Shown here piece by piece: positions 8,810 through 30,691 of a stretch of DNA of 32,776 nt. The DNA lies in NCBI GenBank assembly GCA_045121735.1, contig JBGVGP010000202.1, positions 1-32,776 of the forward strand. The letters run 5' to 3'. Numbering within the stretch: the stretch's first letter is position 1; each line of letters starts with the position of its first letter. Source of the stretch: Acutalibacteraceae bacterium. Its GTDB lineage: Bacteria; Bacillota; Clostridia; Oscillospirales; Acutalibacteraceae. Below the pieces are notes generated by a model. It was not told the DNA's origin, made no database searches, and saw only the letters and a list, made by a program, of their open reading frames with translations. Both the position numbers and the translations under genes were made by a program.

Positions 8810-8827
8810 ACACACAACATATGAATA

Positions 8828-8904
8828 TTACTAGGGGTGCTGAATTCTTCGGCTGAGATTATACCCATAACCTGATTCGGATAATACCGACGTAGGCTAA
8901 GTAA
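8828..8904 (+). promoter_or_regulatory. TPP (THI-box) riboswitch aptamer
   Basis: Conserved core GGGGTGC ... CTGAGA ... ACCC ... ACCTGAT..GGATAATACC..CGTAGG, closed by a P1 helix TTACT/AGTAA. Confidence 0.85.
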
Positions 8905-8912
8905 CGAGCTTT

Positions 8913-8950
8913 ATTCCACCCTTTTTGTAAAGGGTGGATTTTTTCTTTTC
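8913..8950 (+). terminator. Riboswitch expression-platform terminator
   Basis: TCCACCCTTT-ttgt-AAAGGGTGGA followed by TTTTTTCTTTT. Lies about 95 nt upstream of the first gene. Confidence 0.8.
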
Positions 8951-9043
8951 CGGCGCGCAGAAAGGAAGAAGCCCACAATCTCCACAGTATATTGATATGT
9001 TGAAATATCATCAGGTGAAAATTCACCTTAAGGAGTGTTTGTT

Positions 9044-11852: not shown

Positions 11853-11887
11853 AGCCAAGGGCCAGAGGGCCGAGGGCCGAGTAGCAC
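11853..11887 (+). repeat. Heptad tandem array (GGCCRAG type)
   Basis: AGCCAAG GGCCAGA GGGCCGA GGGCCGA GTAGCAC. Begins at the nucleotide after the stop codon at 11850-11852. Confidence 0.8.
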
Positions 11888-13696: not shown

Positions 13697-13697
13697 C

Positions 13698-13719
13698 TTA
13701 CTACTTACTACTTACTACT
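13698..13719 (-). repeat. Heptad array (GTAGTAA x3 on the minus strand)
   Basis: TTACTAC x3 on the + strand. Begins 2 nt downstream of the stop of the 13721-14245 gene. Confidence 0.8.
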
Positions 13720-15798: not shown

Positions 15799-15827
15799 TT
15801 GAGAAAAAAAGTGAAATGTGATAATAT
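15799..15827 (+). promoter_or_regulatory. Promoter of queH
   Basis: TTGAGA, 17 nt, TGa-TAATAT extended -10. Confidence 0.55.
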
Positions 15828-15860
15828 ATGTTCAGTATTAATTTTATGCGGGGTGAAGCA

Positions 15861-16460
15861 ATGGAAAATCTTCAGCGTGAGCTTGAAAAAATTATAGAAA
15901 AAAACAAAAGGGACGGCATAAAACCGACCCTGCTTCTTCACGCCTGCTGTGCTCCCTGCAGCAGCTACTGCATAGAATATCTCAACGAGCATTTTGATAT
16001 CACCCTTTTATTCTACAACCCCAATATTTACCCTGCCGACGAATACGATTACCGAATCAGTGAGCTTAAAAGGCTTGTAAGTGAAATGGAACTTTCTATT
16101 CCCGTGCTTGAATGCGAAAACGACACCGAAAGCTTTTACGCCCTCGCCAAGGGCAGAGAGGATGTGCGCGAGGGCGGTGTGAGGTGCTTTGACTGCTACC
16201 GTCTGCGCCTTGAAAAAACTGCCGAGCTAGCAAAGAAGGGCGGCTTTGACTATTTCACAACCACCCTTTCTATAAGTCCTCTCAAAAACGCACAGAAGCT
16301 TCGTGAAATCGGTCTTGAGCTTGAGGAAAAATACGGCGTTAAAAATCTCCCCTCGGATTTCAAAAAGAAAGAGGGCTATAAAAGAAGCATTGAGCTTTCA
16401 AAAAAGTATAACCTTTACAGACAGGATTACTGCGGTTGCGAGTATTCGAGGAGAAGCTGA
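15861..16460 (+). CDS. queH: Epoxyqueuosine reductase QueH (DUF208)
   Basis: LLLHACCAPCS, CFDCYRLR and C-terminal DYCGCEYS cysteine motifs. ATG at 15861 follows GGGGTGAAG. Confidence 0.8.
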   Translation: MENLQRELEKIIEKNKRDGIKPTLLLHACCAPCSSYCIEYLNEHFDITLLFYNPNIYPADEYDYRISELKRLVSEMELSIPVLECENDTESFYALAKGREDVREGGVRCFDCYRLRLEKTAELAKKGGFDYFTTTLSISPLKNAQKLREIGLELEEKYGVKNLPSDFKKKEGYKRSIELSKKYNLYRQDYCGCEYSRRS

Positions 16461-16462
16461 GA

Positions 16463-16490
16463 CAATTCGCAATGCGCAATGCGCAATTCC
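16463..16490 (+). repeat. Heptad array (CAATGCG type)
   Basis: CAATTCG CAATGCG CAATGCG CAATTCC, starting 3 nt after the queH stop. Confidence 0.8.
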
Positions 16491-16540
16491 CCCTCTCCGT
16501 CAGACCTTTGGTCTGCCACCTCTCCCGATGGGAGAGGCAA
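16489..16540 (+). repeat. Y-hairpin-Y'-R element, copy 1
   Basis: CCCTCTCC GTCA CAGACC-ttt-GGTCTG CCA CCTCTCCC gat GGGAGAGG. Confidence 0.85.
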
Positions 16541-16566
16541 GTATAAAGGCCATGCAAAAAAACAGT

Positions 16567-16620
16567 CCTCGGCTCTCCATTTGGGAGAGCTGTCAAAATC
16601 AAAGATTTTGACTGAGAGGG
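16567..16620 (+). repeat. Hairpin + GTCAAAATC palindrome + mirror purine module, copy 1
   Basis: GCTCTCC-atttg-GGAGAGC, then T GTCAAAATC-aaa-GATTTTGAC T GAGAGGG. Confidence 0.85.
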
Positions 16621-16652
16621 CATACAGTTTTCCAACACGAAAATATCAACCG

Positions 16653-16685
16653 TAAAAAAACGCACCGAAAAATCGGTGCGTTTTC
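16653..16685 (+). terminator. Terminator (ACGCACCGA family, copy 2)
   Basis: ACGCACCGA-aaaa-TCGGTGCGT plus TTTT. Together with the following heptads it is about 98 percent identical to 13664-13719. Confidence 0.8.
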
Positions 16686-16686
16686 C

Positions 16687-16708
16687 TTACTACTTACTAC
16701 TTACTACT
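16687..16708 (-). repeat. Heptad array (TTACTAC x3)
   Basis: Identical to the array at 13698-13719. Confidence 0.8.
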
Positions 16709-16739
16709 AAAAAAACGCCCCATCAAGGGGCGTTTTTTT
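16708..16739 (-). terminator. Rubrerythrin terminator (bidirectional)
   Basis: ACGCCCC-atcaa-GGGGCGT flanked by A- and T-runs. Confidence 0.75.
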
Positions 16740-17271
16740 AATAATTCTCTTTTCTAACCTCGAAGTAGCTCTGAGGATGAGCGCATACGGGGCAAACCTC
16801 GGGAGCCTTTTTACCCATTACAAGGTGTCCGCAGTTACGGCATTCCCACATGGTCTCCTCGCTCTTTTCAAATACTGCCTTCATCTCAACGTTGTTAAGA
16901 AGTGCACGGTATCTTTCCTCGTGGCTCTTTTCAATAGCAGCAACCATTCTGAACTTGTTTGCAAGGTCTGTAAAGCCTTCTTCCTCAGCCTCATCAGCAA
17001 ACTTTGCATACATGTCAGTCCACTCGTAGTTTTCACCTGCTGCAGCTGCTGCAAGGTTTTCTGCTGTGTTACCAAGCTCACCGAGAGCCTTGAACCACAT
17101 TTTTGCGTGCTCCTTTTCGTTGTTTGCAGTTGCTTCAAAAATAGCGGCAATCTGCTGATAGCCTTCCTTTTTTGCTACGGAAGCAAAGTAGGTGTACTTG
17201 TTTCTTGCCTGTGATTCACCTGCAAAGGCCTCCATAAGATTTTTTTCGGTTTTTGTACCTTTAAGATTCAT
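16738..17271 (-). CDS. rbr: Rubrerythrin
   Basis: Ferritin-like di-iron domain ([30 protein letters not shown]) plus a C-terminal rubredoxin CRNCGH...CPVCAHP. Confidence 0.9.
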
Positions 17272-17301
17272 AGTTGTTTCCTCCTTGTTTTCTTTGTAAA
17301 A

Positions 17302-17330
17302 ATAATATCATCAGAACACAGTTTTGTCAA
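17302..17330 (-). promoter_or_regulatory. Promoter of rubrerythrin
   Basis: Minus strand TTGACA-17 nt-TATTAT. Confidence 0.6.
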
Positions 17331-17385
17331 TTCGCTTTTTGTTTATTCATAAAGTTTTTTATAATGAAAAAATGACAATAAACAG

Positions 17386-17414
17386 TTGAACAAAGGTCAA
17401 TAATATGGTAATAT
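17386..17414 (+). promoter_or_regulatory. Promoter of the ABC-F gene
   Basis: TTGAAC-17 nt-TAATAT. Confidence 0.5.
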
Positions 17415-17455
17415 GAATTTGTATGCAAAAAAATTAAAGTGAGGTCAGTTATAAA

Positions 17456-19057
17456 ATGATTAGTACAAATAACGTAACTCTGCAGTACGGTGGCAGAGAG
17501 CTTTTCAAAAGCGTTTCAATCAACTTTACAAAGGGCAACTGCTACGGTCTTATCGGTGCCAACGGCGCAGGTAAAAGTACCTTTTTAAAGATTCTTTCAG
17601 GTGAAATTGAGCCTAACAAGGGCTATGTTACAATCACTCCCGGTGAAAGACTTTCTGTTTTAAAGCAGGACCACTACGCTTATGATGAATACGATGTAAT
17701 AAGAACAGTGCTTATGGGTAACCCCAAGCTTGTTGAAATTATGGACGCCAAGGAGGAGCTTTACTCAAAAGAGGAGTTCACCGAGGAGGACGGCATAAGA
17801 ATCAGCGAGCTTGAAGAGGAGTTTGCAGAAATGGACGGCTGGAGTGCCGAAAGTGATGCGGAAATTCTTCTCAACGCCCTGGGCATTCATAACGAATTCC
17901 ACTACTCTCTTATGAAGGATTTAAGCGGTGACCAGAAGGTTAAGGTGCTTCTTGCACAGGCTCTTTTCGGCAACCCCGATATTCTTCTTCTTGACGAGCC
18001 TACCAACCATCTTGACGTTGCGGCTATCAACTGGCTTGAGGAATTCCTCATGAATTTTGAAAACACCGTTATCGTTGTCAGCCATGACAGACACTTTCTC
18101 AACAAGGTCTGCACACATATTGCTGACTGTGACTTCGGCAAAATCACAATGTACGTAGGTAACTACGATTTCTGGTACGAATATACCCAGATGGCACAGC
18201 GTCAGCTTCGTGAGCAGAACAAGAAAACCGAAGCGAAGATGAAGGAGCTTCAGGAATTCATTGCACGCTTCAGTGCTAACGCTTCAAAATCAAAGCAGGC
18301 AACAAGCCGTAAAAAGCTGCTTGATAACCTCGTATTAGAGGATATGCCCGTTTCCTCAAGACGCTTCCCCTTTGTTGAATTCAAGCCCGACAGAGAAATC
18401 GGTAACGATATGCTTACGGTTGAGGGACTTACCAAAACCGTCGGCGACAGAAAGGTGCTCGACAACGTTTCATTTACAATAAGACCTAACGAAAAGGTTG
18501 CCTTTGTAGGTACCGATGCCGTTGCAAAGACCACACTTTTCAAAATTCTTATGGGTGAGCTTGAGCCCGACGAGGGTAGCTTCAAGTGGGGCGTTACAAC
18601 CTCACAGGCTTACTTCCCCGCTGATAACTCTGCCTTCTTTGACGACGTTGAGGACAGCCTTATCGACTGGGTAAGAAGCTATTCCGACCTTCAGTTTGAA
18701 ACTGATGTAAGAGGCTGGCTCGGCAGACTTATGTTCTCCGGTGAAGAGGCAACCAAAAAGGCAAAGGTTCTTTCCGGCGGTGAAAGAGTGCGCTGTATGC
18801 TTTGCAAAATGATGCTTTCAGGTGCAAACGTGCTTATTCTTGACGAGCCCACCAACCACCTTGACCTTGAGTCTATCACTGCGCTCAACAACGCTCTTAT
18901 CAAATTCAAGGGTGCTCTTCTTTTCACCTCACACGACCATCAGTTTGTTCAGTCAATTGCTGACAGAATTATTGAAATCCGTCCCGACGGACTTTATGAC
19001 CGCAAGGAAACCTACGACGAATTCCTTGAAAACAACGAATTGCTTATCACTAAATAA
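17456..19057 (+). CDS. ABC-F family ATPase (YbiT-like size class)
   Basis: 533 aa with two NBDs and no TM domain. NBD1 has GANGAGKST / LSGDQ / LLLDEPTNHLD. NBD2 has GTDAVAKTT / LSGGER / LILDEPTNHLD. A charged linker lies between them. Confidence 0.9.
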   Translation: MISTNNVTLQYGGRELFKSVSINFTKGNCYGLIGANGAGKSTFLKILSGEIEPNKGYVTITPGERLSVLKQDHYAYDEYDVIRTVLMGNPKLVEIMDAKEELYSKEEFTEEDGIRISELEEEFAEMDGWSAESDAEILLNALGIHNEFHYSLMKDLSGDQKVKVLLAQALFGNPDILLLDEPTNHLDVAAINWLEEFLMNFENTVIVVSHDRHFLNKVCTHIADCDFGKITMYVGNYDFWYEYTQMAQRQLREQNKKTEAKMKELQEFIARFSANASKSKQATSRKKLLDNLVLEDMPVSSRRFPFVEFKPDREIGNDMLTVEGLTKTVGDRKVLDNVSFTIRPNEKVAFVGTDAVAKTTLFKILMGELEPDEGSFKWGVTTSQAYFPADNSAFFDDVEDSLIDWVRSYSDLQFETDVRGWLGRLMFSGEEATKKAKVLSGGERVRCMLCKMMLSGANVLILDEPTNHLDLESITALNNALIKFKGALLFTSHDHQFVQSIADRIIEIRPDGLYDRKETYDEFLENNELLITK

Positions 19058-19068
19058 GAGGTGCTTTT

Positions 19069-19764
19069 ATGATTTATGTAATGGGAGACATTCACGGCTG
19101 CAAGGACAAATACGACGAAATGCTCGAAAAGCTTTCACCGGGGGAGCATGACGCAGTTTTTCTTCTGGGTGATGTTATTGATGTAGGTGATGACGGTATT
19201 GAAATACTGAACGATATGATGTACCGTGCAAACATTTATCCTATCCTCGGCGAAAGAGAATACTATGCAAAAAAATTCCTGCCCCTTATTGCACAAAAGG
19301 GCAGTGCCGAAAAGGCTCTTGAATCACTTGACGGTGAGGATAAGGAAATGCTTTCAGCATGGCTCTCAATGAAAAGTGAAAAAACAATCGAGGACTTTCT
19401 TAAGCTTGATGATGAGGGCAAGGAAGCAATTCTCGAATTTCTTGAGGAGTTTGCAGTATTTGAGGAAATTGACTGCAACGGTAAAAAATTCCTTCTCACC
19501 CACGCAGGTATAGACAATCACGATGAGCTTGACCTTTACGAGCATATGGAAGAGGATTTTATTTTTGCAAAAACAGATTATAACAAAATATACTTCCCCA
19601 ACGCTTATCTTGTAACAGGTCACACACCCACCGTTGCAATAGGCAAGGAATATGCAGGTAAGGTTTACGCTAAAAAGCGTCACCTTGCCCTTGACTGCGG
19701 TGCTGCCTTCGGCGGCAGACTTGCGGCAGTCTGCCTTGATACACTTAAGGTAAGCTACTGCTGA
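19069..19764 (+). CDS. Metallophosphoesterase (PPP-family Ser/Thr phosphatase-like)
   Basis: GDIHG, GDVIDVGD and GHTP motifs. Lies 11 nt downstream of the ABC-F gene. Confidence 0.75.
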   Translation: MIYVMGDIHGCKDKYDEMLEKLSPGEHDAVFLLGDVIDVGDDGIEILNDMMYRANIYPILGEREYYAKKFLPLIAQKGSAEKALESLDGEDKEMLSAWLSMKSEKTIEDFLKLDDEGKEAILEFLEEFAVFEEIDCNGKKFLLTHAGIDNHDELDLYEHMEEDFIFAKTDYNKIYFPNAYLVTGHTPTVAIGKEYAGKVYAKKRHLALDCGAAFGGRLAAVCLDTLKVSYC

Positions 19765-19766
19765 TT

Positions 19767-19805
19767 TAGTAGTCAGTAGTCAGTAGCCAGTAGTCAGGAG
19801 TCAGG
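19767..19805 (+). repeat. Heptad array (AGTCAGT type)
   Basis: TAGT AGTCAGT AGTCAGT AGCCAGT AGTCAGG AGTCAGG, starting 3 nt after the stop at 19762-19764. Confidence 0.85.
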
Positions 19806-19831
19806 AAACCGCCCGAAAGGGCGGTTTTTTT
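19806..19831 (+). terminator. Terminator (ACCGCCC-N4-GGGCGGT family)
   Basis: AAACCGCCC-gaaa-GGGCGGTTTTTTT. Confidence 0.85.
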
Positions 19832-19863
19832 GTGGATTTTTTCAGATTTTTTCAAAAAAATTA

Positions 19864-19894
19864 TTGACATTTACCTTAGGTTAAACTGTAATAT
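19864..19894 (+). promoter_or_regulatory. Promoter with a 19-nt spacer upstream of the MerR-like gene
   Basis: TTGACA (19864-19869), 19 nt containing the dyad ACCT-T-AGGT, TAATAT (19889-19894). Confidence 0.45.
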
Positions 19895-19929
19895 AAGTGT
19901 ACCGAAATACAAAAAAGGGGTGCATTTTT

Positions 19930-21213
19930 ATGAAAATGAAGGACGTTATAGCCCTTACGGGTCTTACCGACCGTGCTATAAGACTCTACATTGAAAACGG
20001 ACTTGTTTCTCCGTCGTGCATAGAATCCTACTCGGGAAGAAAAAACATTGACTTTACCGAGGATGATGTTACAGAGCTTTGTAACATTGCTATTCTCCGT
20101 AAGGTAGGCTTTTCTATAAACGAAATCAAACAGCTTCGCCTTGACGAGGAAAGCTGCCGTAAGGTGCTTACCGAATTTATGAGTAAAACCTCTGAACGGA
20201 TAAAAAACGACAAAGAGGTGCTTGAAAAGCTTAAAGCCGTGGCTGAGAGCGAAACCGTTACCTTAAAAAAAATCTGTGAAAGCCTTAACAGTGTTACAAA
20301 AGAAAAAGAAGTACCTAAATCTGATACAAAATTCAGTTTTGCAGAGAAATTTGAAAAGCGTTTTTTTACTGTTTTAGCTTCGGTTGGTCTTATTTATATT
20401 TTCGGCTGTATTGTGTACAGTGTTCTTATCTGTGTGTTCAATTTTGATTATCTCTATCCTACAGTAAGAGCCTTTGATTTTTATTTCTTCGCAAAGCTTT
20501 TTATTGTTGTGTTTGTCGTTGCAAGCTGTGTGTATTTTCTTTATACCTACCGCAGAAGAATACTGTCTGACGATAGAAAAAAACGGCTCATAAGCCACAC
20601 TGTTCTCTCGGTATTCTGCACTTTTTTATGCTGGTGCTTTTTCTTCTGCACACTTTGGTCTGTATTTTCACCCAACGCCTGCTCAAAAACAACATCGCCG
20701 AAAAATTATCTTGTACTTGACGAATATGCAGAGAGTAAAGAAATAACGGAGTTTTTCCCTTATGAAATAGACGGCTATGCAACTAACAGCCACGGCGGCA
20801 ACGATTTGCTGATTGATTTTCCCGACACTTATCCTGACACTACAAAATATTACTATAAATACTTCCGCGACGGTTTCGGCGGCGATGTGTTTACGGAAAT
20901 AACTGCCGAATGGAAGCTTCTTGAAAAATACAAAAAGTATGATGATTACCTTTACCGATACAATCAGCACAAGAAAAAATACCTTAGTCCGGAATTCGGA
21001 AAGCCCGTTACCGTAAAAACAAGGGATGACTGGCAGCTGATTTATTATGATGATGTTTCCGAGGATAACTGGAATAAAAATTACAGCTACAGAATTTTTG
21101 CATACAACGAGAAAACAAAAACGGTACGTTTTATTTACGCCTCGCGGTACATAAAAGACCACATTGAAGAGGGCAAAGAGATTGTACCGAATTTTATGAG
21201 CTTTGAATGGTAA
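19930..21213 (+). CDS. Membrane-anchored MerR-family HTH protein
   Basis: From the ATG at 19930 (RBS AAAGGGGTG): MerR HTH MKMKDVIALTGLTDRAIRLYIENGL, a coiled region, three TM helices, then a ~170-aa Tyr/Asp/Lys-rich C-terminal domain. Confidence 0.7.
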   Translation: MKMKDVIALTGLTDRAIRLYIENGLVSPSCIESYSGRKNIDFTEDDVTELCNIAILRKVGFSINEIKQLRLDEESCRKVLTEFMSKTSERIKNDKEVLEKLKAVAESETVTLKKICESLNSVTKEKEVPKSDTKFSFAEKFEKRFFTVLASVGLIYIFGCIVYSVLICVFNFDYLYPTVRAFDFYFFAKLFIVVFVVASCVYFLYTYRRRILSDDRKKRLISHTVLSVFCTFLCWCFFFCTLWSVFSPNACSKTTSPKNYLVLDEYAESKEITEFFPYEIDGYATNSHGGNDLLIDFPDTYPDTTKYYYKYFRDGFGGDVFTEITAEWKLLEKYKKYDDYLYRYNQHKKKYLSPEFGKPVTVKTRDDWQLIYYDDVSEDNWNKNYSYRIFAYNEKTKTVRFIYASRYIKDHIEEGKEIVPNFMSFEW

Positions 21214-21237
21214 AAAGATGCAGTGATGCTGAATATA

Positions 21238-21271
21238 CAAAAAGCAGGCGTTTTCGTAACACCTGCTTTTA
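21238..21271. terminator. Bidirectional terminator between convergent genes
   Basis: AAAGCAGG-13-nt loop-CCTGCTTT flanked by A- and T-runs. Confidence 0.55.
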
Positions 21272-21299
21272 ATGTTATATATCTTTCTGTACTGTCGCC

Positions 21300-22412
21300 T
21301 TACATCATTGACGAAACCAACATCGACAGAAGCTGATTTGCAAAATATGCCGCAAAAGCAATAAAAATTGAAGCGCCGCCGTTTTTAACAATATAACGCA
21401 TTGCTGACGGCTTGTCACTCATCGCCTCAATACCCCTGACGTGACTTATAACGTGCTTTTTGTAAATGACGTTTGCCACAAGAGCGCAGATAAGCTGAAG
21501 TAAAACTGTAGCAAAAAAGTAAATTGCCATAGGAATTGATGCAGCCGTAAGCTCGGCAAAAATTTCGTTGAACTGTGCCTCGGTCATTGTGCCCGATTCA
21601 GCAAGGGGTGCAAGCTTTTCAAAAACCTCAAGCATACCGTAAAGATAGGGTGTAATAATTATGCTCAGTGCAAGCGATGCAGTCATTACTACAATACCTG
21701 CCTTGTATAGCTTACGGTAGAAGAACCAGTAGGCACCGAAGAAGAACGCGGCAAAGTTGAAGCTTATCTTCCTGCCTCTTTGCATTTTCTTGAACCTTGC
21801 AATATAGCTCATAGCGTTTGAGCCTATGAAGTTGCCGACGTTGTTTGTCATTACGCCGTCAATTTCATCCGTTACAGGGAAGGGGCCGCCGAGGTTGAGT
21901 CTTGAAGCCTCATTGCCCTGAGCGTCAGTATTTCCCGTAAGCACATCAATAAGCTTCTGCTGTACCTGCTGTGCAGTATCGGGCTTTTCTTCCTCTTCCT
22001 TTTTCTCAAAGGCCTCACCCTCGCCGAGAGTAAAGGGTGCCTCGTAATCGGGTATGTCTCTGTTAGGATTGATAGCCCTCTGCTCTTCCTTATGCATTGC
22101 ATCAACAACGTTCATACCGAAAAGGGTGAACTTCATTCCGCACTGCTTGCATACGGGTGTGCCTACGGGGTTGTCATAGCCGCAGTTAGGGCAGCTTGCT
22201 GTCTCTCTTTTTTCTGCGGGAAGAGCTGCTTCGTTTTTTACTATTCCCTGCCAGGTATAGCCGTCACCGTGCATATGTGCGCAAACGCAACGGTCTTCCC
22301 TTTCATAGCATTCTCTGTGCTGAGGTGTGCCGCATTCGGGGCATACAACAACGTCATCTCCGTCTTCAAAGGGGCGGTTACAGCCCTGACAGAGGTTTCC
22401 TGTATATTTCAT
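21300..22412 (-). CDS. Zinc-ribbon protein with DUF2628-like membrane domain
   Basis: 370 aa. N-terminal CQGC...CPEC...H..C cysteine cluster, a second ribbon CPNC...CKQC, then FNFAAFFFGAYWFFYRKLYKAG and TM helices. Confidence 0.6.
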   Translation of the reverse strand: MKYTGNLCQGCNRPFEDGDDVVVCPECGTPQHRECYEREDRCVCAHMHGDGYTWQGIVKNEAALPAEKRETASCPNCGYDNPVGTPVCKQCGMKFTLFGMNVVDAMHKEEQRAINPNRDIPDYEAPFTLGEGEAFEKKEEEEKPDTAQQVQQKLIDVLTGNTDAQGNEASRLNLGGPFPVTDEIDGVMTNNVGNFIGSNAMSYIARFKKMQRGRKISFNFAAFFFGAYWFFYRKLYKAGIVVMTASLALSIIITPYLYGMLEVFEKLAPLAESGTMTEAQFNEIFAELTAASIPMAIYFFATVLLQLICALVANVIYKKHVISHVRGIEAMSDKPSAMRYIVKNGGASIFIAFAAYFANQLLSMLVSSMM

Positions 22413-22521
22413 AAATAACTCCTTTTAAATAAGTCTTTGAATATTATTTTACGGTAATATATAGAATAATACTACTTTTACCGATTAATTGCAACAGTTT
22501 GAACTTTTTTCCTTAAAGGTG

Positions 22522-22549
22522 TTGCCCTTTACAAATAAATGTGTATAAT
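22522..22549 (+). promoter_or_regulatory. Promoter about 270 nt upstream of prfB
   Basis: TTGCCC (22522-22527), 16 nt, TATAAT (22544-22549). No better promoter is seen closer to prfB. Confidence 0.45.
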
Positions 22550-22582
22550 GTATAAGGTGGAATAAGGCGAAAGCCCAAGCTA

Positions 22583-22631
22583 AATTCGGAATTCAAAATT
22601 CGGAATTCAAAATTCGGAATTCGGAATTAAC
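22583..22631 (+). repeat. Heptad array (AATTCGG / AATTCAA, 7 units)
   Basis: AATTCGG AATTCAA AATTCGG AATTCAA AATTCGG AATTCGG AATTAAC. An inverted partner ATTCCGAATTC lies at 22741-22751. Confidence 0.85.
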
Positions 22632-22824
22632 TCCAATGAAGATTGTTTTTACAAGTCGGAATAAGAAATCGTATATCAGCTATATCAATACACATATAAA
22701 CGCAGCGGAGCGACCCTTCATTCCAAATTTCTGATTACGCATTCCGAATTCAGATAACAATCTGTATTTTAAAATAGTAGTTGACCTATAAATAAACTTA
22801 AAAATTCCCGAAAGGATGAGAAAG

Positions 22825-23946
22825 ATGGTTCAGTTTGAAGAATTAAGATTGAGACTTCTTGAAAGCGAAAAGCCTCTCAAGGAGCTTGCTTCTGCACTCG
22901 GCCTTGAAGAGATGGCAAAGGAGGTTGCCACCCTTGAGGAGCAGACTGCTGCAGAGGATTTCTGGGGTGACCTTGCAAATTCACAGAAGGTGCTTCAGCG
23001 CATTGCTGCACTTAAAAACAAAATCAAGGCATACGAGGACCTTACAACAGCCTTTGACGATGCCCTTGTTATGATTGAGCTTTCCGACGAGGAGGGTGAC
23101 CTTGAGCTTCTTCCCGAATGTGAGGAAAGCGTAAAGGCCGTTGAGGACGAGCTTGACAAGCAGACTCTTGCAACACTCCTTTCAGGCGAATACGATAACA
23201 ATAACGCTATTCTTAACTTCCACGCAGGTGCAGGCGGTACCGAAGCACAGGACTGGTGTCAGATGCTTTTCAGAATGTACGGTCAGTGGGCAACAAAGCA
23301 CGGCTTTAAGTTTACAACCGTTGACTTCCTTGACGGTGACGAAGCAGGTCTTAAATCTGCAACAGTTGTTATTGAAGGCGAAAACGCTTACGGCTATCTC
23401 AAGGGTGAGATGGGTGTTCACCGTCTTGTACGTGTTTCTCCCTTCGACTCATCAGGACGCCGTCACACCTCCTTTGCTTCACTTGAGGTTATGCCCGAAA
23501 TCGACGATACCGTTGAGGTAGAAATCCGTGAAGAGGATATCAAGATGGAGGTTTACCGTGCTTCAGGTGCAGGCGGACAGAAGGTTAACAAAACCTCATC
23601 AGCCGTTCGACTTATCCACGAGCCTACAGGCATTGTTGTTTCCTGCCAGGTTGAAAGAAGCCAGCATCAGAACAGAGAAGTTTGTATGAAGATGCTCAAG
23701 TCCAAGCTTATCGAAATCAAGGAAAGAGAGCATCTTGACAAGATTGAGGATATCAAGGGCGAGCAGAAGGAAATCGGCTGGGGCAGCCAGATCCGTTCCT
23801 ACGTATTTATGCCCTACACCCTTGCAAAGGACCACAGAACAGGCTTTGAAATGGGTAACATCAACGCTGTTATGGACGGCGATATTGACGGCTTTATCAA
23901 CGCATATCTTAAAAAGCAGTCCCTTGATGCACTCAGTGCTGAGTAA
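22825..23946 (+). CDS. prfB: Peptide chain release factor 2
   Basis: SPF tripeptide (RVSPFDS) and GGQ (SGAGGQKVN). The whole N-terminal domain is in the same frame. Start is 22825 (or 22816). Confidence 0.9.
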   Translation: MVQFEELRLRLLESEKPLKELASALGLEEMAKEVATLEEQTAAEDFWGDLANSQKVLQRIAALKNKIKAYEDLTTAFDDALVMIELSDEEGDLELLPECEESVKAVEDELDKQTLATLLSGEYDNNNAILNFHAGAGGTEAQDWCQMLFRMYGQWATKHGFKFTTVDFLDGDEAGLKSATVVIEGENAYGYLKGEMGVHRLVRVSPFDSSGRRHTSFASLEVMPEIDDTVEVEIREEDIKMEVYRASGAGGQKVNKTSSAVRLIHEPTGIVVSCQVERSQHQNREVCMKMLKSKLIEIKEREHLDKIEDIKGEQKEIGWGSQIRSYVFMPYTLAKDHRTGFEMGNINAVMDGDIDGFINAYLKKQSLDALSAE

Positions 23947-23955
23947 GAGTAGGCC

Positions 23956-23982
23956 GTAGGGTACGCCCTGTGTGGCGTACCG
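23956..23982 (+). repeat. GGTACGCC hairpin element, copy 1
   Basis: GTAG GGTACGCC ctgtgt GGCGTACC G. Matches the reverse complement of 30665-30691 at 26 of 27 positions. Confidence 0.85.
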
Positions 23983-24002
23983 CAAGCAAACAGTAATAAG
24001 TA

Positions 24003-24036
24003 GTCACGCGCGAGTAAATTCGTGCGTGACTTTTTG
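24003..24036 (+). terminator. prfB terminator (GTCACGCGCGA family, copy 1)
   Basis: GTCACGCGCGA-gtaaat-TCGTGCGTGAC plus TTTTT. Confidence 0.8.
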
Positions 24037-24094
24037 TTTTGCTCCGTGCGCGTCATAGAGTCGAGAGGTAACGCGTAGGGTACACTCTTGGTAA

Positions 24095-24140
24095 CTCCTT
24101 CCGTCACCCTTCGGGTGCCACCTTCCTCAAAGAGGAAGGC
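24095..24140 (+). repeat. Y-hairpin-Y'-R element, copy 2
   Basis: CTCCTTCC GT CACCC-ttc-GGGTG CCA CCTTCCTC aaa GAGGAAGG. Confidence 0.85.
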
Positions 24141-24143
24141 TTT

Positions 24144-24195
24144 AAGGCTCCCTCGCTGAGGGAGCTGTCAAAATCTATGATTTTGACTGAGGGAG
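24144..24195 (+). repeat. Hairpin + GTCAAAATC palindrome + purine module, copy 2
   Basis: GCTCCCTC-gct-GAGGGAGC, then T GTCAAAATC-tat-GATTTTGAC T GAGGGAG. Confidence 0.85.
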
Positions 24196-24204
24196 TAAAA
24201 ACCA

Positions 24205-24238
24205 CACACGCACGATTAAGTTCGGGCGTGACTTTTTA
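24205..24238 (+). terminator. Terminator (GTCACGCGCGA family, copy 2, one mismatch)
   Basis: CACGCACGA-ttaagt-TCGGGCGTG AC TTTTT. Confidence 0.65.
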
Positions 24239-24297
24239 TTTTTATGTGATTTAAAAAGTACCGAGGGTCTGACGGAGAGTGTCCTGACTACTGCACC

Positions 24298-24382
24298 TTT
24301 TTCATACGCCACAGCGTATTTCATAGCGCAGCTATTTCATATCCGCAGGATATTTCATAAATCCGTAAGGATTTATTTCATT
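24298..24382 (+). repeat. Array of four mini-hairpins separated by (A)TTTCAT
   Basis: TTTCAT occurs at 24300, 24319, 24335, 24353 and 24376. The intervening palindromes are ACGC-caca-GCGT, AGC-gca-GCT, ATCC-gca-GGAT and AAATCC-gtaa-GGATTT. Confidence 0.75.
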
Positions 24383-24385
24383 GTC

Positions 24386-24494
24386 CCCTGGCTACTCACT
24401 ACTCTCTACTGCGCTGTCAGGCGCCCTGGCTACTCACTACTCTCTACTGCGCCGTCAGGCGCCCCTGACTACTGCCTACTGCCTACTGACTACT
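24386..24494 (+). repeat. 38-bp tandem direct repeat x2 plus heptad tail
   Basis: CCCTGGCTACTCACTACTCTCTACTGCGC(T/C)GTCAGGCG at 24386 and 24424, with 1 mismatch. The tail is CTGACTA CTGCCTA CTGCCTA CTGACTA (24465-24494). Confidence 0.85.
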
Positions 24495-24952: not shown

Positions 24953-26606
24953 CTTTGATTCTTATGTAAAAGAAATCTGTAAGGATATAAAATCAAGACC
25001 GAGACGTGAAGAGGTTGAAGAGGAGCTGCTTTGTCATCTCGAGGATAACTACGAAAGAAATCTCAATATCGGTATGACCGAGGAAGAGGCAAGGCTCAAT
25101 GCCATTAAAGAAATGGGGGACGGTGAATTACTTTCCTATTATATTTCACAGGTCAATTCAGATTCACCGCTGAAAAATATGAATTCTGCACTTATAGGTA
25201 TAATAAGCGGATTTGTAGGCCTTAACTTCCTGTTTTCAGGCGTTGTAAAGGAGACTGCAGTCGCTTTTGGCTTTATACTTATGTTCCTCCCTCTTTTAAG
25301 AATGAGGAAAATGAACAAAAAGGCAGAAGCCGCCCTTCACTTTTTCAATTTTTATGCCCTTTCACAGCTTTTTTATTACTGCATAAGCATAGGCAATATA
25401 CTTCCTCAATGGGTGTTTTACACTTATATAATTGTTAATTCTCTTTTTGAGGGTCTTTTCTGGATTTTCCTTTTCTCTTCAATTTATGAGCTTTGCAGTA
25501 ATAACCTTGATGAAGAAGCAAAAAAAACAAGGCTTGTTTTCTGCGGTGTGTTTTACATGCTTTTATCCTTTCTGTCAGGCTATATTCTTATTCTCTCCGA
25601 GGGTGAAAGCGTACACATTGATGATTTCATCATGCCTTTAATTCTGATTTTTATGTTCATATTTACTCTTGTTCAGCTTTTCAGGGCAAAAAGTCTTTTA
25701 TGGGCAGCTGACAGTGAGTACGGTATTGAGTCTGCAAACAAAAAGAATCTTGCCGTTTATTACTGTGCAGGACTTTTCTGCCTTATTACAATAATCGGCT
25801 GCAACTATTTTGCCTCAACAAAGGAGCCTGTAAAGGCAGAGCATATAATTCACGATGTTTCACAGGAAGAACAAAAGGAAGCCGACAGGGTAAGACAGAA
25901 AATGCTCAAGTGGGACGTTGACCCACAGATTGTTGAGGATTTACCCGACAGCGAAATTCTGAACTATAAGGATGCTGAATTTGTTTCTTTCGGTGCTGAC
26001 GGCGGAAGCCTCGGCGGTTCATCCTACGACAGCGGAGCAAGCAGTGACCTTTACTACTATTGGTTTTTCATTCCCGATAAGGAATACGAGGGTAATTATG
26101 ATGTAAGGCTGCTTTGTTATATTGAAAGTCACTATGCAGACAAGGTAAAAAGCCTTTACCGGAAAGGCTTTTACTATATGCCGTGGCAGAATTATTCCTA
26201 CGGCTTCGACATTTTTCCCCTTAACTTTGAGGATGAGTTCAACGGCTCTTACATTGGTATAATCACCGAAGAAAAGGGAAAGAAATACAATGCAGAGCCC
26301 TTTTTCACTTACAGAATCAAGGATACCGAGGAAGGATTTCCGAATGATTACCCCAAGGGCTTTGAATACAGAGAGGAAAAGGGGCAACGGGTATATTTTG
26401 CCATACCATTTGGTGTAGCCAACCCCGAGGAATTTGAAGCCACAATATATGCGGCAACGGTAAGGCAGCGTTGGTTTACGGGCTTTAATTACAAAAGCTC
26501 TGCCGAATATATCAGAACTATTTTCAAGGGTGACAGCCTGCATATACCTCAGGATACTTATATGCCCTATTATTACAGGCTGCATAATATTTATAGTAGT
26601 AAGTAG
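24939..26606 (+). CDS. PadR-associated multi-pass membrane protein with large C-terminal domain
   Basis: ATG at 24939 (RBS GGGAGG) overlaps the padR end by 14 nt. N-terminal DUF1700-like helical prefix (DFDSYVKEICKDI...EEELLCHLEDNYE), about 6 TM helices, then a ~260-aa Tyr-rich soluble domain. Confidence 0.65.
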   Translation: MLPLDFDSYVKEICKDIKSRPRREEVEEELLCHLEDNYERNLNIGMTEEEARLNAIKEMGDGELLSYYISQVNSDSPLKNMNSALIGIISGFVGLNFLFSGVVKETAVAFGFILMFLPLLRMRKMNKKAEAALHFFNFYALSQLFYYCISIGNILPQWVFYTYIIVNSLFEGLFWIFLFSSIYELCSNNLDEEAKKTRLVFCGVFYMLLSFLSGYILILSEGESVHIDDFIMPLILIFMFIFTLVQLFRAKSLLWAADSEYGIESANKKNLAVYYCAGLFCLITIIGCNYFASTKEPVKAEHIIHDVSQEEQKEADRVRQKMLKWDVDPQIVEDLPDSEILNYKDAEFVSFGADGGSLGGSSYDSGASSDLYYYWFFIPDKEYEGNYDVRLLCYIESHYADKVKSLYRKGFYYMPWQNYSYGFDIFPLNFEDEFNGSYIGIITEEKGKKYNAEPFFTYRIKDTEEGFPNDYPKGFEYREEKGQRVYFAIPFGVANPEEFEATIYAATVRQRWFTGFNYKSSAEYIRTIFKGDSLHIPQDTYMPYYYRLHNIYSSK

Positions 26607-26636
26607 TAAGTAGTGAGTAGTCAGTAGTCAGTAGTC
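26595..26636 (+). repeat. Heptad array (AGTAGTA x2, AGTAGTG, AGTAGTC x3)
   Basis: Six units. The last four codons and the TAG stop (26604-26606) of the upstream gene lie inside the array. Confidence 0.9.
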
Positions 26637-26667
26637 ACGCGCGATTAAGTTCGAGCGTGACTTTTTT
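26634..26667 (+). terminator. Terminator (GTCACGCGCGA family, copy 3)
   Basis: GTCACGCGCGA-ttaagt-TCGAGCGTGAC plus TTTTTT. Confidence 0.8.
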
Positions 26668-26695: not shown

Positions 26696-26746
26696 GGACT
26701 CCCTCCGTCACGGCTTTGCCGTGCCACCTCCCTCAAGGAGGGAGAC
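26696..26746 (+). repeat. Y-hairpin-Y'-R element, copy 3
   Basis: CTCCCTCC GT CACGGC-ttt-GCCGTG CCA C CTCCCTC aag GAGGGAG. Confidence 0.85.
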
Positions 26747-28446: not shown

Positions 28447-28488
28447 GAGTAGTCAGTAGCCAGTAGTCAGGGCCGAGGACCGAGTAGG
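28447..28488 (+). repeat. Heptad array (mixed AGTAGTC and GGCCGAG types)
   Basis: GAGTAGT CAGTAGC CAGTAGT CAGGGCC GAGGACC GAGTAGG. Confidence 0.85.
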
Positions 28489-28512
28489 GACACGGCTTGC
28501 CGTGTCCGCAGG

Positions 28513-28561
28513 TTTCCCTCTCCGTCACTTCGTGACACCTCTCCCAAGGGGAGAGGCAAGG
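28513..28561 (+). repeat. Y-hairpin-Y'-R element, copy 4
   Basis: CCCTCTCC GTCAC-ttc-GTGAC A CCTCTCCC aag GGGAGAGG. Preceded by the hairpin GGACACGG-cttg-CCGTGTCC. Confidence 0.85.
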
Positions 28562-28616
28562 AGAGTAGCTCATATTGAAAAACGGCACCCTGTTTACTGG
28601 ATACCGTCTTGTGTAT

Positions 28617-30605: not shown

Positions 30606-30639
30606 ATTTATCATTCCTTTTCTGCGCCCGAAGGGCGCT

Positions 30640-30660
30640 CTGACTACTGACTACCGGCTA
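30640..30660 (-). repeat. Heptad array (TAGTCAG type, minus-strand sense)
   Basis: + strand CTGACTA CTGACTA CCGGCTA, inside the ogg-nth spacer. Confidence 0.7.
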
Positions 30661-30664
30661 TTCA

Positions 30665-30691
30665 CGGTACGCCACATAGGGCGTACCCTAC
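30665..30691 (-). repeat. GGTACGCC hairpin element, copy 2
   Basis: Minus strand GTAGGGTACGCCCTATGTGGCGTACCG. The TAG stop of the ogg-like gene (30688-30690) is part of the element. Confidence 0.85.

Follow-up and report, generated by a model that had tools for sequence, protein, structure and literature searches.

A repeat in which three short tracts change together between copies raises the question of what holds the tracts in step, and of which strand, of which nucleic acid, might carry the fold. Such a repeat occurs in a 32,776-nt stretch of an Acutalibacteraceae genome (contig JBGVGP010000202.1, assembly GCA_045121735.1; hereafter the window), in which an initial annotation, made from the sequence alone, had described four copies. 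The unit is ~45 nt long and consists of tract A, GTCA, a variable hairpin, CCA, tract A', a 3-nt loop and tract B; in all four copies A' gives A when reversed and B when reverse complemented. We consider it probable that the copies represent a dispersed intergenic DNA repeat of the kind of REP (repetitive extragenic palindromic) or BIME (bacterial interspersed mosaic element) sequences and BoxC, with tracts that follow the code of an antiparallel purine-motif triplex. As judged from the sequence comparison, a three-stranded arrangement is the best account of the covariation, because the relation of A to A' is specifically that of mirror images. Moreover, what the evidence indicates is a purine-motif DNA triplex, carried by the complement of the strand considered in the initial annotation, and not an RNA, a pyrimidine-motif triplex or a Watson-Crick switch, since adenine and thymine are equivalent in A opposite A-T pairs, the helix that A could form with B is short in most tract combinations, and the modules are randomly oriented.

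Modules beyond the window

Public collections were scanned with two degenerate patterns. In both, tract A was free except for its last 2-3 bases, and the second additionally allowed any pyrimidine or any purine at six positions of A' and B. These scans gave at least 119 loci in species-representative genomes, at least 120 in metagenomes and, in a complete scan, 71 in the IMG/VR viral contigs; the matches listed for these pattern-derived loci are the basis of all module statistics and of all counts of hosts and arrangements given below. The initial annotation had proposed comparing copies across the genome and its relatives, and this comparison, made by patterns that imposed the GTCA and CCA letters, yielded several hundred further modules in which A follows the mirror of A', located in Oscillospirales, other Firmicutes, Sphingomonadaceae, Chloroflexota, Armatimonadota and viral contigs. 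Named hosts are mostly Oscillospirales (Oscillospiraceae, Ruminococcaceae, Acutalibacteraceae, Flintibacter, Pseudoflavonifractor and Faecalibacterium, including F. prausnitzii UT1, NZ_CP170812.1, the source of locus L093), together with Christensenellaceae, Lachnospiraceae and Negativicutes (Selenomonas, Mitsuokella, Schwartzia). Outside Firmicutes, the hosts include at least nine Sphingomonadaceae/Alphaproteobacteria, one member of the Chloroflexota and one of the Armatimonadota. Over all loci there are 266 distinct modules of the type represented by the four window copies (L-type), with 12 distinct A' and 22 distinct A tracts in 29 A/A' combinations; a second subtype (R-type) is found inverted next to some of them, as described below for copies 1 and 2.

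Covariation of the three tracts

The relation between A and A' is one of identity or mirror image, not of complementarity, and was computed directly in Python. A triple was scored as valid when a G-C pair faced C or an A-T pair faced T or A, tract A being read against A' in reverse. By this rule the L-type combinations have a mean of 7.38 valid triples out of 8, compared to 5.66 +/- 0.21 when A was exchanged among the tract combinations, and 0 of 20000 such shuffles were as good, a count that is not a probability because the shuffles ignore descent. Register 0 alone works (7.5 versus 2.6-3.9 after sliding by 1-3 nt). Two further sets, drawn partly or wholly from sequences other than those of the main L-type set, behave in the same way: 6.53 of 7 triples are valid in R-type modules (4.61 +/- 0.31 when shuffled) and 7.5 of 8 in viral contigs alone (5.62 +/- 0.32), again with 0 of 20000 shuffles as good in either case. 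In addition, when mutual information is calculated between the 8 columns of A and the 8 columns of A', row and column maxima are found only on the mirror diagonal (0.49, 0.50, 0.40, 0.30, 0.66 and 0.36 bits), with every other cell at or below 0.21 bits. This is the signature expected of a pairing register, not of subfamilies inherited as blocks, and the diagonal pattern and its repetition in the two other sets are stronger arguments than the shuffle counts. The mirror relation of A to A' reported for four copies therefore extends to the family, and this covariation upholds the core proposal of the initial annotation, that selection would act on a three-stranded structure rather than on primary sequence.

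The bases used in tract A distinguish between the two triplex codes. Over the 29 combinations, the base opposite G-C pairs is C in 150 cases, T in 14, A in one and G in one, and that opposite A-T pairs is T in 44, A in 20, C in one and G in one; at positions 2-6 alone, an adenine of A lies opposite A-T 12 times and opposite G-C never. Variants such as AAACACCC with CCCTCTTT, CCACATCC with CCTTCTCC and AATCCTCC with CCTCCTTT score 8/8 by the purine-motif code and 4-6/8 as plain mirrors. The first of these has AAAGAGGG as its tract B, and reading GGGTGTTT on the complementary strand against AAAGAGGG gives the G.GC / T.AT / A.AT code of the antiparallel purine motif; GGATGAGG with GGGGAAGG is a further natural variant. 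Hence, the three-stranded part of the intramolecular triplex put forward in the initial annotation is retained, whereas its pyrimidine motif on the + strand conflicts with the 20 adenines of A opposite A-T pairs.

Pairing within the A'/B hairpin is kept even where the search left it free, B being exactly complementary to A' in 74 of the 78 viral pattern matches although the pattern required only pyrimidines and purines. The tracts change together across the 29 combinations, which follow the mirror rule, as they had been said to do in the window, and intermediates exist: tract A CTCCTTCC is combined with A' and B still of the CCCTC type in 45 instances, with all three tracts changed in 8 (window copy 2 among them), and, on one viral contig, with A' CCTCCCTC and B GAGGAAGG, where B has changed and A' has not. 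The bridging hairpin varies in a compensatory manner, as the window copies had indicated, since a perfect stem of at least 5 bp is present in 82% of 245 distinct linkers compared to 1.6% of shuffles.

Copies in the window

Tract coordinates were read directly from the window sequence, and the four copies lie where the initial annotation had placed them, with the tracts as transcribed there and one shared architecture. A pattern consisting of CCGTCA, 8-16 nt, CACCT followed by 5 pyrimidines, 3 nt and 8 purines has four matches in the window, all at these copies, and none in 100 dinucleotide-preserving shuffles (0.00 expected). The modules and their parts are as follows.

16491-16537, + strand: copy 1, L-type module, written on the pyrimidine strand
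16491-16498, + strand: copy 1 tract A, CCCTCTCC, followed by GT
16501-16515, + strand: copy 1 bridging hairpin, CAGACC-TTT-GGTCTG, followed by CCA
16519-16526, + strand: copy 1 tract A', CCTCTCCC, followed by loop GAT
16530-16537, + strand: copy 1 tract B, GGGAGAGG
16572-16620, - strand: inverted R-type module of copy 1, whose pyrimidine strand is the minus strand
16572-16590: pyrimidine/purine hairpin of this R-type module, GCTCTCC/GGAGAGC
16592-16612: its bridging hairpin, GTCAAAATC-AAA-GATTTTGAC
16614-16620: its third tract, GAGAGGG, complementary to tract A of the copy 1 L-type module
24095-24139, + strand: copy 2, L-type module, with tract A CTCCTTCC at 24095-24102 and the bridging hairpin at 24105-24117
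24121-24128, + strand: copy 2 tract A', CCTTCCTC, followed by loop AAA
24132-24139, + strand: copy 2 tract B, GAGGAAGG
24148-24195, - strand: inverted R-type module of copy 2, with the pyrimidine/purine hairpin CTCCCTC-GCT-GAGGGAG at 24148-24164
24167-24187: bridging hairpin of this R-type module
24189-24195: its third tract, GAGGGAG
24265-24283, - strand: truncated module remnant, reverse complement CACTCTCCGTCAGACCCTC
26699-26744, + strand: copy 3, lone L-type module, with tract A CTCCCTCC, that is CTCCCTC(C), at 26699-26706
26709-26723, + strand: copy 3 bridging hairpin, CACGGC-TTT-GCCGTG
26728-26734, + strand: copy 3 tract A', CTCCCTC, followed by loop AAG
26738-26744, + strand: copy 3 tract B, GAGGGAG
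28516-28565, + strand: copy 4, lone L-type module, with tract A CCCTCTCC at 28516-28523
28524-28536, + strand: copy 4 bridging hairpin, GTCAC-TTC-GTGAC
28538-28545, + strand: copy 4 tract A', followed by loop AAG
28549-28556, + strand: copy 4 tract B

A scan for C-rich pyrimidine-arm/purine-arm hairpins finds six in the 32.8 kb, namely the four reported and two more at 16572-16590 and 24148-24164. The extra hairpins are parts of second modules that lie inverted, so that copies 1 and 2 each combine an L-type with an inverted R-type module in an imperfect palindrome, which spans 16491-16620 (~130 nt) in copy 1 and 24094-24196 (~103 nt) in copy 2. When reverse complemented, the R-type module reads CCCTCTCA-GTC[hairpin]GAC-AG-CTCTCC-loop-GGAGAG, which is the plan of the L-type unit. 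The third tract of the copy 2 R-type module pairs with tract A of its L-type module, one G.T pair included, tract A of copy 3 has no distal pairing partner, and copy 4 carries an extra purine tract, GGAGAG (28560-28565), that is able to pair with the CTCTCC of its tract A (28518-28523). These inverted second modules, the distal purine tracts complementary to A and the GGAGAG of copy 4 were absent from the initial annotation. The inverted degenerate fragment that it had placed at 24265-24283 is real, and is a module reduced to tract A, GTCA and the 5' half of the hairpin, with the A'/B hairpin gone. On the minus strand, copy 1 reads Y(8)-loop(3)-R(8)-hairpin-R(8), which is the order of a class II purine-motif intrastrand triplex, and copy 4 reads 5'-CCTCTCCCCTTGGGAGAGGTGTCACGAAGTGACGGAGAGGG-3'. 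Just upstream of copy 4, at 28488-28507, there is an orphan hairpin, GGACACGGC-TTG-CCGTGTCC, which is nearly the same as the copy 3 bridging hairpin and may be a remnant of another module.

Relation to known repeats

Repeats predicted to fold as intrastrand DNA triplexes have been known in Escherichia coli since the 1990s (Holder et al. 2015, PMC4666352, who cite Hoyne et al. 2000 and the BoxC work of the 1990s). The BoxC/PIT/TM-ECO unit, CCCTCNCCC-N3-6-GGGNGAGGG-N3-GGGNGAGGG, is present in E. coli and about 260 proteobacterial genomes, where it is intergenic, shows no strand bias, often forms inverted pairs of types A and B, has no linked mobility genes and is associated with small deletions and locus variability (PMC4666352). 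Its single strand forms a very stable triplex as judged by circular dichroism and nuclear magnetic resonance, and purine-motif triplexes form in DNA but not in RNA (PMC4666352). The view that the window element is not a described repeat or RNA family must therefore be divided: it matches no Rfam family (see below), but as a DNA repeat it has a precedent in BoxC/PIT/TM-ECO.

The likeness is considerable. In both families the order on one strand is pyrimidine - purine - purine (class II), the first loop is 3 nt, T.AT is used beside A.AT and G.GC, and single mismatched triples are frequent; the tracts are nearly the same (CCCTCTCCC / GGGAGAGGG / GGGTGAGGG in E. coli and CCTCTCCC / GGGAGAGG / GGAGAGGG here). 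Both are intergenic and multi-copy, lack strand bias and a linked transposase, form inverted pairs of two subtypes (by crude gene calls in our case; the E. coli inverted pair was confirmed by reading locus L129) and are involved in small deletions and locus variability. The third tract of the present modules can be matched antiparallel to the purine tract by G.GC, A.AT and T.AT in 7.38/8 (L-type), 6.53/7 (R-type) and 7.5/8 (viral) triples, as in PIT elements. PIT loops are both short, however (3-6 plus 3 nt in TM-ECO; PMC4666352), whereas here the second connector is an 18-26-nt linker with a structure-conserved 4-7 bp hairpin between GTCA and (C)CA. Moreover, tracts are 7-8 nt here and 9 nt there, and hosts are mainly Oscillospirales, other Firmicutes, (pro)phages, Sphingomonadaceae, Chloroflexota and Armatimonadota here, as opposed to Enterobacteria, cyanobacteria and Haemophilus there. 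When L129 is compared by eye with the present family, the tracts are nearly identical and the loops and flanks are unalignable, so the tract similarity could be convergent. The published searches, as outlined in the main text of PMC4666352, allowed loops of 0-10 nt (Hoyne et al.) or 1-6 nt (ITxF), and would have missed the hairpin-bridged family because the hairpin in one loop exceeds these limits; that main text makes no mention of Firmicutes, Clostridia, Faecalibacterium or Sphingomonas. No description of the hairpin-bridged variant was found in the literature searched, which is not proof that none exists. Judged by its tract plan, and leaving homology to BoxC aside, the family is a new, hairpin-containing relative in kind of the little-studied BoxC/PIT repeats.

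Two other classes of DNA element share some of these properties. Like REP, BIME and REPIN sequences, the modules are short, structured and intergenic, are found alone, in inverted doublets folding as long hairpins and in mosaic clusters where two subtypes alternate in orientation, and are unstable between strains; unlike them, they lack a GTAG-type tetranucleotide next to a simple palindrome, have no RAYT or other transposase among the neighbouring ORFs, and show a three-tract mirror relation that is absent from REPs. H-DNA has mirror-repeat pyrimidine tracts comparable to A and A' and uses triplex base codes, but here the partner B is on the same strand, which gives an intrastrand fold, and the mirror halves are parted by a ~20-nt palindromic spacer.

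Genomic arrangement and stability

Single L-type modules are the commonest arrangement (142), followed by inverted L/R pairs with the third tracts outside (42) or inside (34) and by tandem L-L pairs (13); the layout with third tracts inside is that of E. coli BoxC pairs (cf. L129). Locus L025 (1-3032) is a satellite-like tandem array with a period of ~180-220 nt in which R-type and L-type modules alternate with identical bridging hairpins. One locus is common to many Eubacteriales genome bins (L007, L011, L016, L036, L041, L049, L056, L061, L070, L078, L079 and L111) and conserves an R-type module that is followed, after a likewise conserved ~50-nt spacer (..GCGCGTTACAATGAAGTTAGTACAAATCTAAAGTCACGCAGG), by an L-type module; the third tracts point inward as in the E. 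coli pairs, and a conserved hairpin, GGCAGAGAAAACAA..CTCTGCC, follows. The locus has no Rfam family match.

Near-identical loci differ at the modules. Between L297 and L299 there is a 298-nt deletion between two direct R-type hairpins, between L227 and L242 a 36-nt deletion within a palindromic pair that leaves the outer stem in place, between L277 and L256 an indel of a single 59-nt module, and between L175 and L142 a replaced spacer that contains a whole long form. In L122 and L123, whose prfB is 89% identical at the nucleotide level, a diverged module is retained at the orthologous site after prfB, CTCCTTCC - ACCGCAAGCGGT - CCC - CCTTCCT - CAGGA - AGGAAGG; compared with the window, the tracts are the same, the bridging hairpin is unrelated, and the GTCA/CCA junction letters and the R-type module are absent. 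Other prfB relatives have different neighbours and no element, and at 83-90% nucleotide identity the intergenic regions of prfB relatives are rearranged and unalignable. Contigs with an identical QueH come from one strain only, the QueH-rubrerythrin spacer of which is identical to that of the window. None of the relatives examined (L122-L128) shares with the window (15800-24000) the order of genes around prfB, QueH and rubrerythrin; rubrerythrin/ABC-F, for example, lies after prfB in L124 and after QueH in the window.

Alternative explanations

It is rather unlikely, in our estimation, that the modules are ordinary palindromes like those of MITEs (miniature inverted-repeat transposable elements) or REPs, with A serving as a terminal inverted repeat or as the closing helix of a multi-hairpin element and the likeness of A to A' being a side effect of low-complexity C/T tracts and of the block-wise inheritance of subfamilies. 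Predicted folding lends this explanation some support, in that minimum-free-energy folds of copies 1, 2 and 4 pair A with a downstream purine tract that closes a three- or five-way junction (z -5.3, -7.0 and -3.6), the five-way junction of copies 1 and 2, with A and the distal purine tract closing it, being obtained on RNA or DNA folding (z -5.3 to -7.0). There are also long forms with 11-13 bp terminal inverted repeats, and with about a dozen A' variants descent could inflate the statistics. Partnerless single L-type modules, however, outnumber the inverted pairs (142 versus 76) and still obey the rule; block inheritance would spread mutual information over all variable columns, whereas it is observed on the mirror diagonal only; adenines of A lie opposite A-T 20 times and opposite G-C once; and templated copying cannot produce mirror repeats. 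When five polymorphic loci were aligned, neither a target-site duplication nor a clean empty site was seen, the boundaries being ragged or inside other modules. All-against-all clustering of 1398 open reading frames (ORFs) neighbouring the pattern-derived loci gave no recurrent transposase family or mobilising gene, and only ABC ATPases, transporters, kinases, dehydrogenases and spurious antisense ORFs recur. Likewise, no RAYT-like ORF recurs among these neighbouring ORFs. Membership in the MITEs was accordingly rejected despite the inverted ends of the long forms, there being no target-site duplication at the five loci and no transposase nearby.

A transcribed RNA element forming an intramolecular pyrimidine-motif triple helix (C+.GC, U.AU), for example one that stabilises a 3' end or senses pH, is unlikely. 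All four L-type modules of the window are on the + strand beside + strand genes, most variants also score 7-8/8 under the pyrimidine code, and pyrimidine-type intrastrand triplexes do exist in RNA (PMC4666352). Over the whole collection, however, orientation is random by crude ORF calls: 31 modules are co-oriented and 42 anti-oriented relative to the gene whose 3' end is adjacent, the corresponding numbers are 39 and 40 for genes with an adjacent 5' end, and 75 and 73 relative to the majority gene strand of the locus. L- and R-type modules are oppositely oriented within one element, and the pyrimidine code permits only T opposite A-T, so that adenine should not occur there. C+.GC triples, of which there would be 5-7 in 8 here, often in runs, are unfavourable near neutral pH, which also counts against the pyrimidine motif. 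A scan of the window and 18 loci at the Rfam 15 gathering level gave no match on the element, its hits (a tRNA, a TPP (thiamine pyrophosphate) riboswitch and Gut-1) all lying off it, and the best result of a permissive scan of copy 2 was a sub-threshold match to anti-hemB (18 bits versus a threshold of 49.5). Known RNA triple helices (ENE/MALAT1-type, SAM-II and preQ1-II pseudoknots) likewise place a third strand in the major groove of a hairpin, but they are rich in U.A-U, keep to one strand and belong to particular transcripts or genes. The present modules are randomly oriented, their triples would mostly be of the C+.GC type, and the equivalence of A and T is consistent with a motif confined to DNA. 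A lagging-strand (HUH-type) mechanism is a separate possibility, for which the gene-orientation proxies show no strand bias.

Improbable to much the same degree is an array of protein-binding sites made up of CCTCC/GGAGG-like tracts and the GTCA-hairpin-CCA junction, in which the tracts would co-vary because one protein, or paralogues of it, read them all. REP and BIME elements are known protein-binding sites, which counts in favour of this idea, as do the small tract repertoire and the GTCA and CCA(CC) that flank the bridging hairpin in all window copies. A reader of double-stranded DNA, however, has no reason to prefer mirror over dyad or direct symmetry, and the equivalence of A and T opposite A-T is a rule of nucleic-acid pairing. 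The conservation of GTCA and CCA was, moreover, imposed by the search patterns, and the L122 orthologue lacks both while keeping the tracts.

Least credible is the two-state Watson-Crick switch of the initial annotation, in which B would pair with either A' or A: near self-mirror tracts let A form 7-8 bp with B in copies 1, 3 and 4, and the RNA minimum-free-energy fold of copy 3 does pair A with B, but A and B could form a helix of at most 3-5 bp in 21 of the 29 combinations, variants such as AAACACCC with AAAGAGGG are unable to pair, and the covariation is in the mirror register and not in the direct-repeat register that a switch requires. Also rejected were hammerhead, HDV (hepatitis delta virus)-like and tRNA-like folds, an expression platform of a riboswitch, and mimicry of the 3' end of 16S rRNA through pairing with a Shine-Dalgarno-like tract: the junction nucleotides do not suit ribozyme cores, there is no start codon at a fixed distance, and orientation is random.

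Proposed mechanism and significance

In the purine-motif DNA fold that we favour, the complementary strand would present, in order, a pyrimidine tract, a 3-nt loop and a purine tract, which form a Watson-Crick hairpin, then the bridging hairpin and a second purine-rich tract, and this last tract would fold back on the first purine tract via G.GC, A.AT and T.AT triples. When the minus strand is folded as single-stranded DNA (ViennaRNA with DNA parameters, a calculation that covers hairpin pairing and not triplexes), both hairpins form and the third tract of copy 3 stays unpaired. We infer that such a triplex would form transiently in cells when replication, repair, recombination or supercoiling opens the duplex, and that the covariation would be kept by selection for, or propagation through, the folded single-stranded form. 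This triple constraint would explain why there are only about a dozen tract variants and a hypervariable bridging hairpin. The folded form might block DNA-processing enzymes or attract them, and local slippage, deletion and recombination would be promoted as a result, as has been proposed for TM-ECO in E. coli. Our best guess as to its role, and the weakest step of the proposal, is a self-propagating or at least self-maintaining structural repeat that has no gene-specific regulatory task.

Several considerations weigh against this interpretation. Support for the triplex consists of sequence comparison, and the TM-ECO triplex was undetected in vivo by dimethyl sulfate footprinting, with the duplex winning in vitro when the complement is present (PMC4666352). 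The copies are related by descent, and the shuffle counts consequently overstate independence, the signal being carried by 12 distinct A' and 29 combinations. GTCA, CCACC/CACCT and the restriction of A' and B to pyrimidines or purines were set by both search patterns, so that their conservation across phyla is partly by construction, and the gene calls behind the orientation tests are crude. The commonest variant, CCTCATCC with CCTTCCCC, retains one mismatched triple, as do CTCCTTCC with CCTCCCTC and CCCTCTCC with CCTCCCCC. In palindromic pairs, tract A can form Watson-Crick pairs with the third tract of the partner module, which is what minimum-free-energy folding predicts. Finally, a mobilising enzyme, a target-site duplication and a clean empty site were all not found among the neighbouring ORFs and at the five aligned loci.

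That natural selection maintains the folded DNA triplex, making the hairpin-bridged purine-motif triplex a genuine functional structure of single-stranded DNA, is a proposal we offer tentatively and with more doubt than conviction. If it is true, the triplex might be the recognition fold of a DNA-processing or mobilising enzyme common to gut Clostridia, their phages and distant phyla, or alternatively a programmed punctuation mark for replication or recombination, and the mirror-diagonal covariation would for the first time prove a DNA triplex by sequence comparison, much as covariation has served to prove RNA helices. The biological relevance of the E. coli triplex has so far rested on in vitro folding and on correlation with instability, and the highly uniform E. 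coli copies offer little scope for an argument from covariation. The present family has about a dozen tract variants, and the concerted changes of its three strands, with the register and the A/T equivalence predicted by the purine-motif code, supply an evolutionary argument for structure. In addition, major commensals of the human and animal gut, Faecalibacterium prausnitzii among them, carry hairpin-bridged repeats in abundance, as do their phages. Repeat-mediated deletions may shape the genome plasticity of these hosts. Short oligonucleotides derived from the repeat allow a decisive biophysical test.

Other features of the window

The genes in the window are those of a host chromosome, that of an Acutalibacteraceae/Oscillospiraceae-like Clostridium (QueH, rubrerythrin, release factor 2, a class II aminoacyl-tRNA synthetase and an ABC-F protein; GC content 42.6%). 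Intergenic spacers hold ~12 tandem arrays of 7-nt units (AGTAGTC, CTTACTA, CAATGCG, AATTCGG, CTGACTA, CTACTCA, GCCGAGG), among them those at 11854-11881, 13697-13719, 16463-16487, 16686-16708, 19768-19804, 22583-22628, 24392-24494, 26595-26637, 28448-28470 and 30640-30654. These arrays often begin at or a few bases from a stop codon, beside terminator hairpins, and resemble the STRR heptamers of cyanobacteria; many of the units contain a stop codon, so that three units stop every frame. Heptamers of the same kinds are also present in relatives, as ATTCCGA, CTTACTA and CTGCCTA in L122 and as CAATGCG right after the prfB stop codon in L126.

A terminator-like hairpin family, GTCACGCGCG..CGTGCGTGAC followed by a T-run, occurs at 24005-24040, 24207-24240 and 26636-26667 and brackets copies 2 and 3, which places copy 2 between two terminator-like sites on the + strand. 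Tandem copies (2.7) of a 38-nt unit, CCCCTGGCTACTCACTACTCTCTACTGCGCCGTCAGGCG, each with a GC hairpin and heptamer-like subrepeats, lie at 24385-24488, with a related single copy at 30617-30665. On the strand opposite to copy 2, some 115 nt downstream of it, is a Gut-1 RNA (RF01706, 60.6 bits versus a threshold of 50; 24313-24383, minus), a little-known motif that is thereby placed in an Acutalibacteraceae/Oscillospiraceae-like genome. The TPP riboswitch (RF00059, 64 bits) lies at 8823-8916, upstream of ORFs that start at 9035 and 9312.

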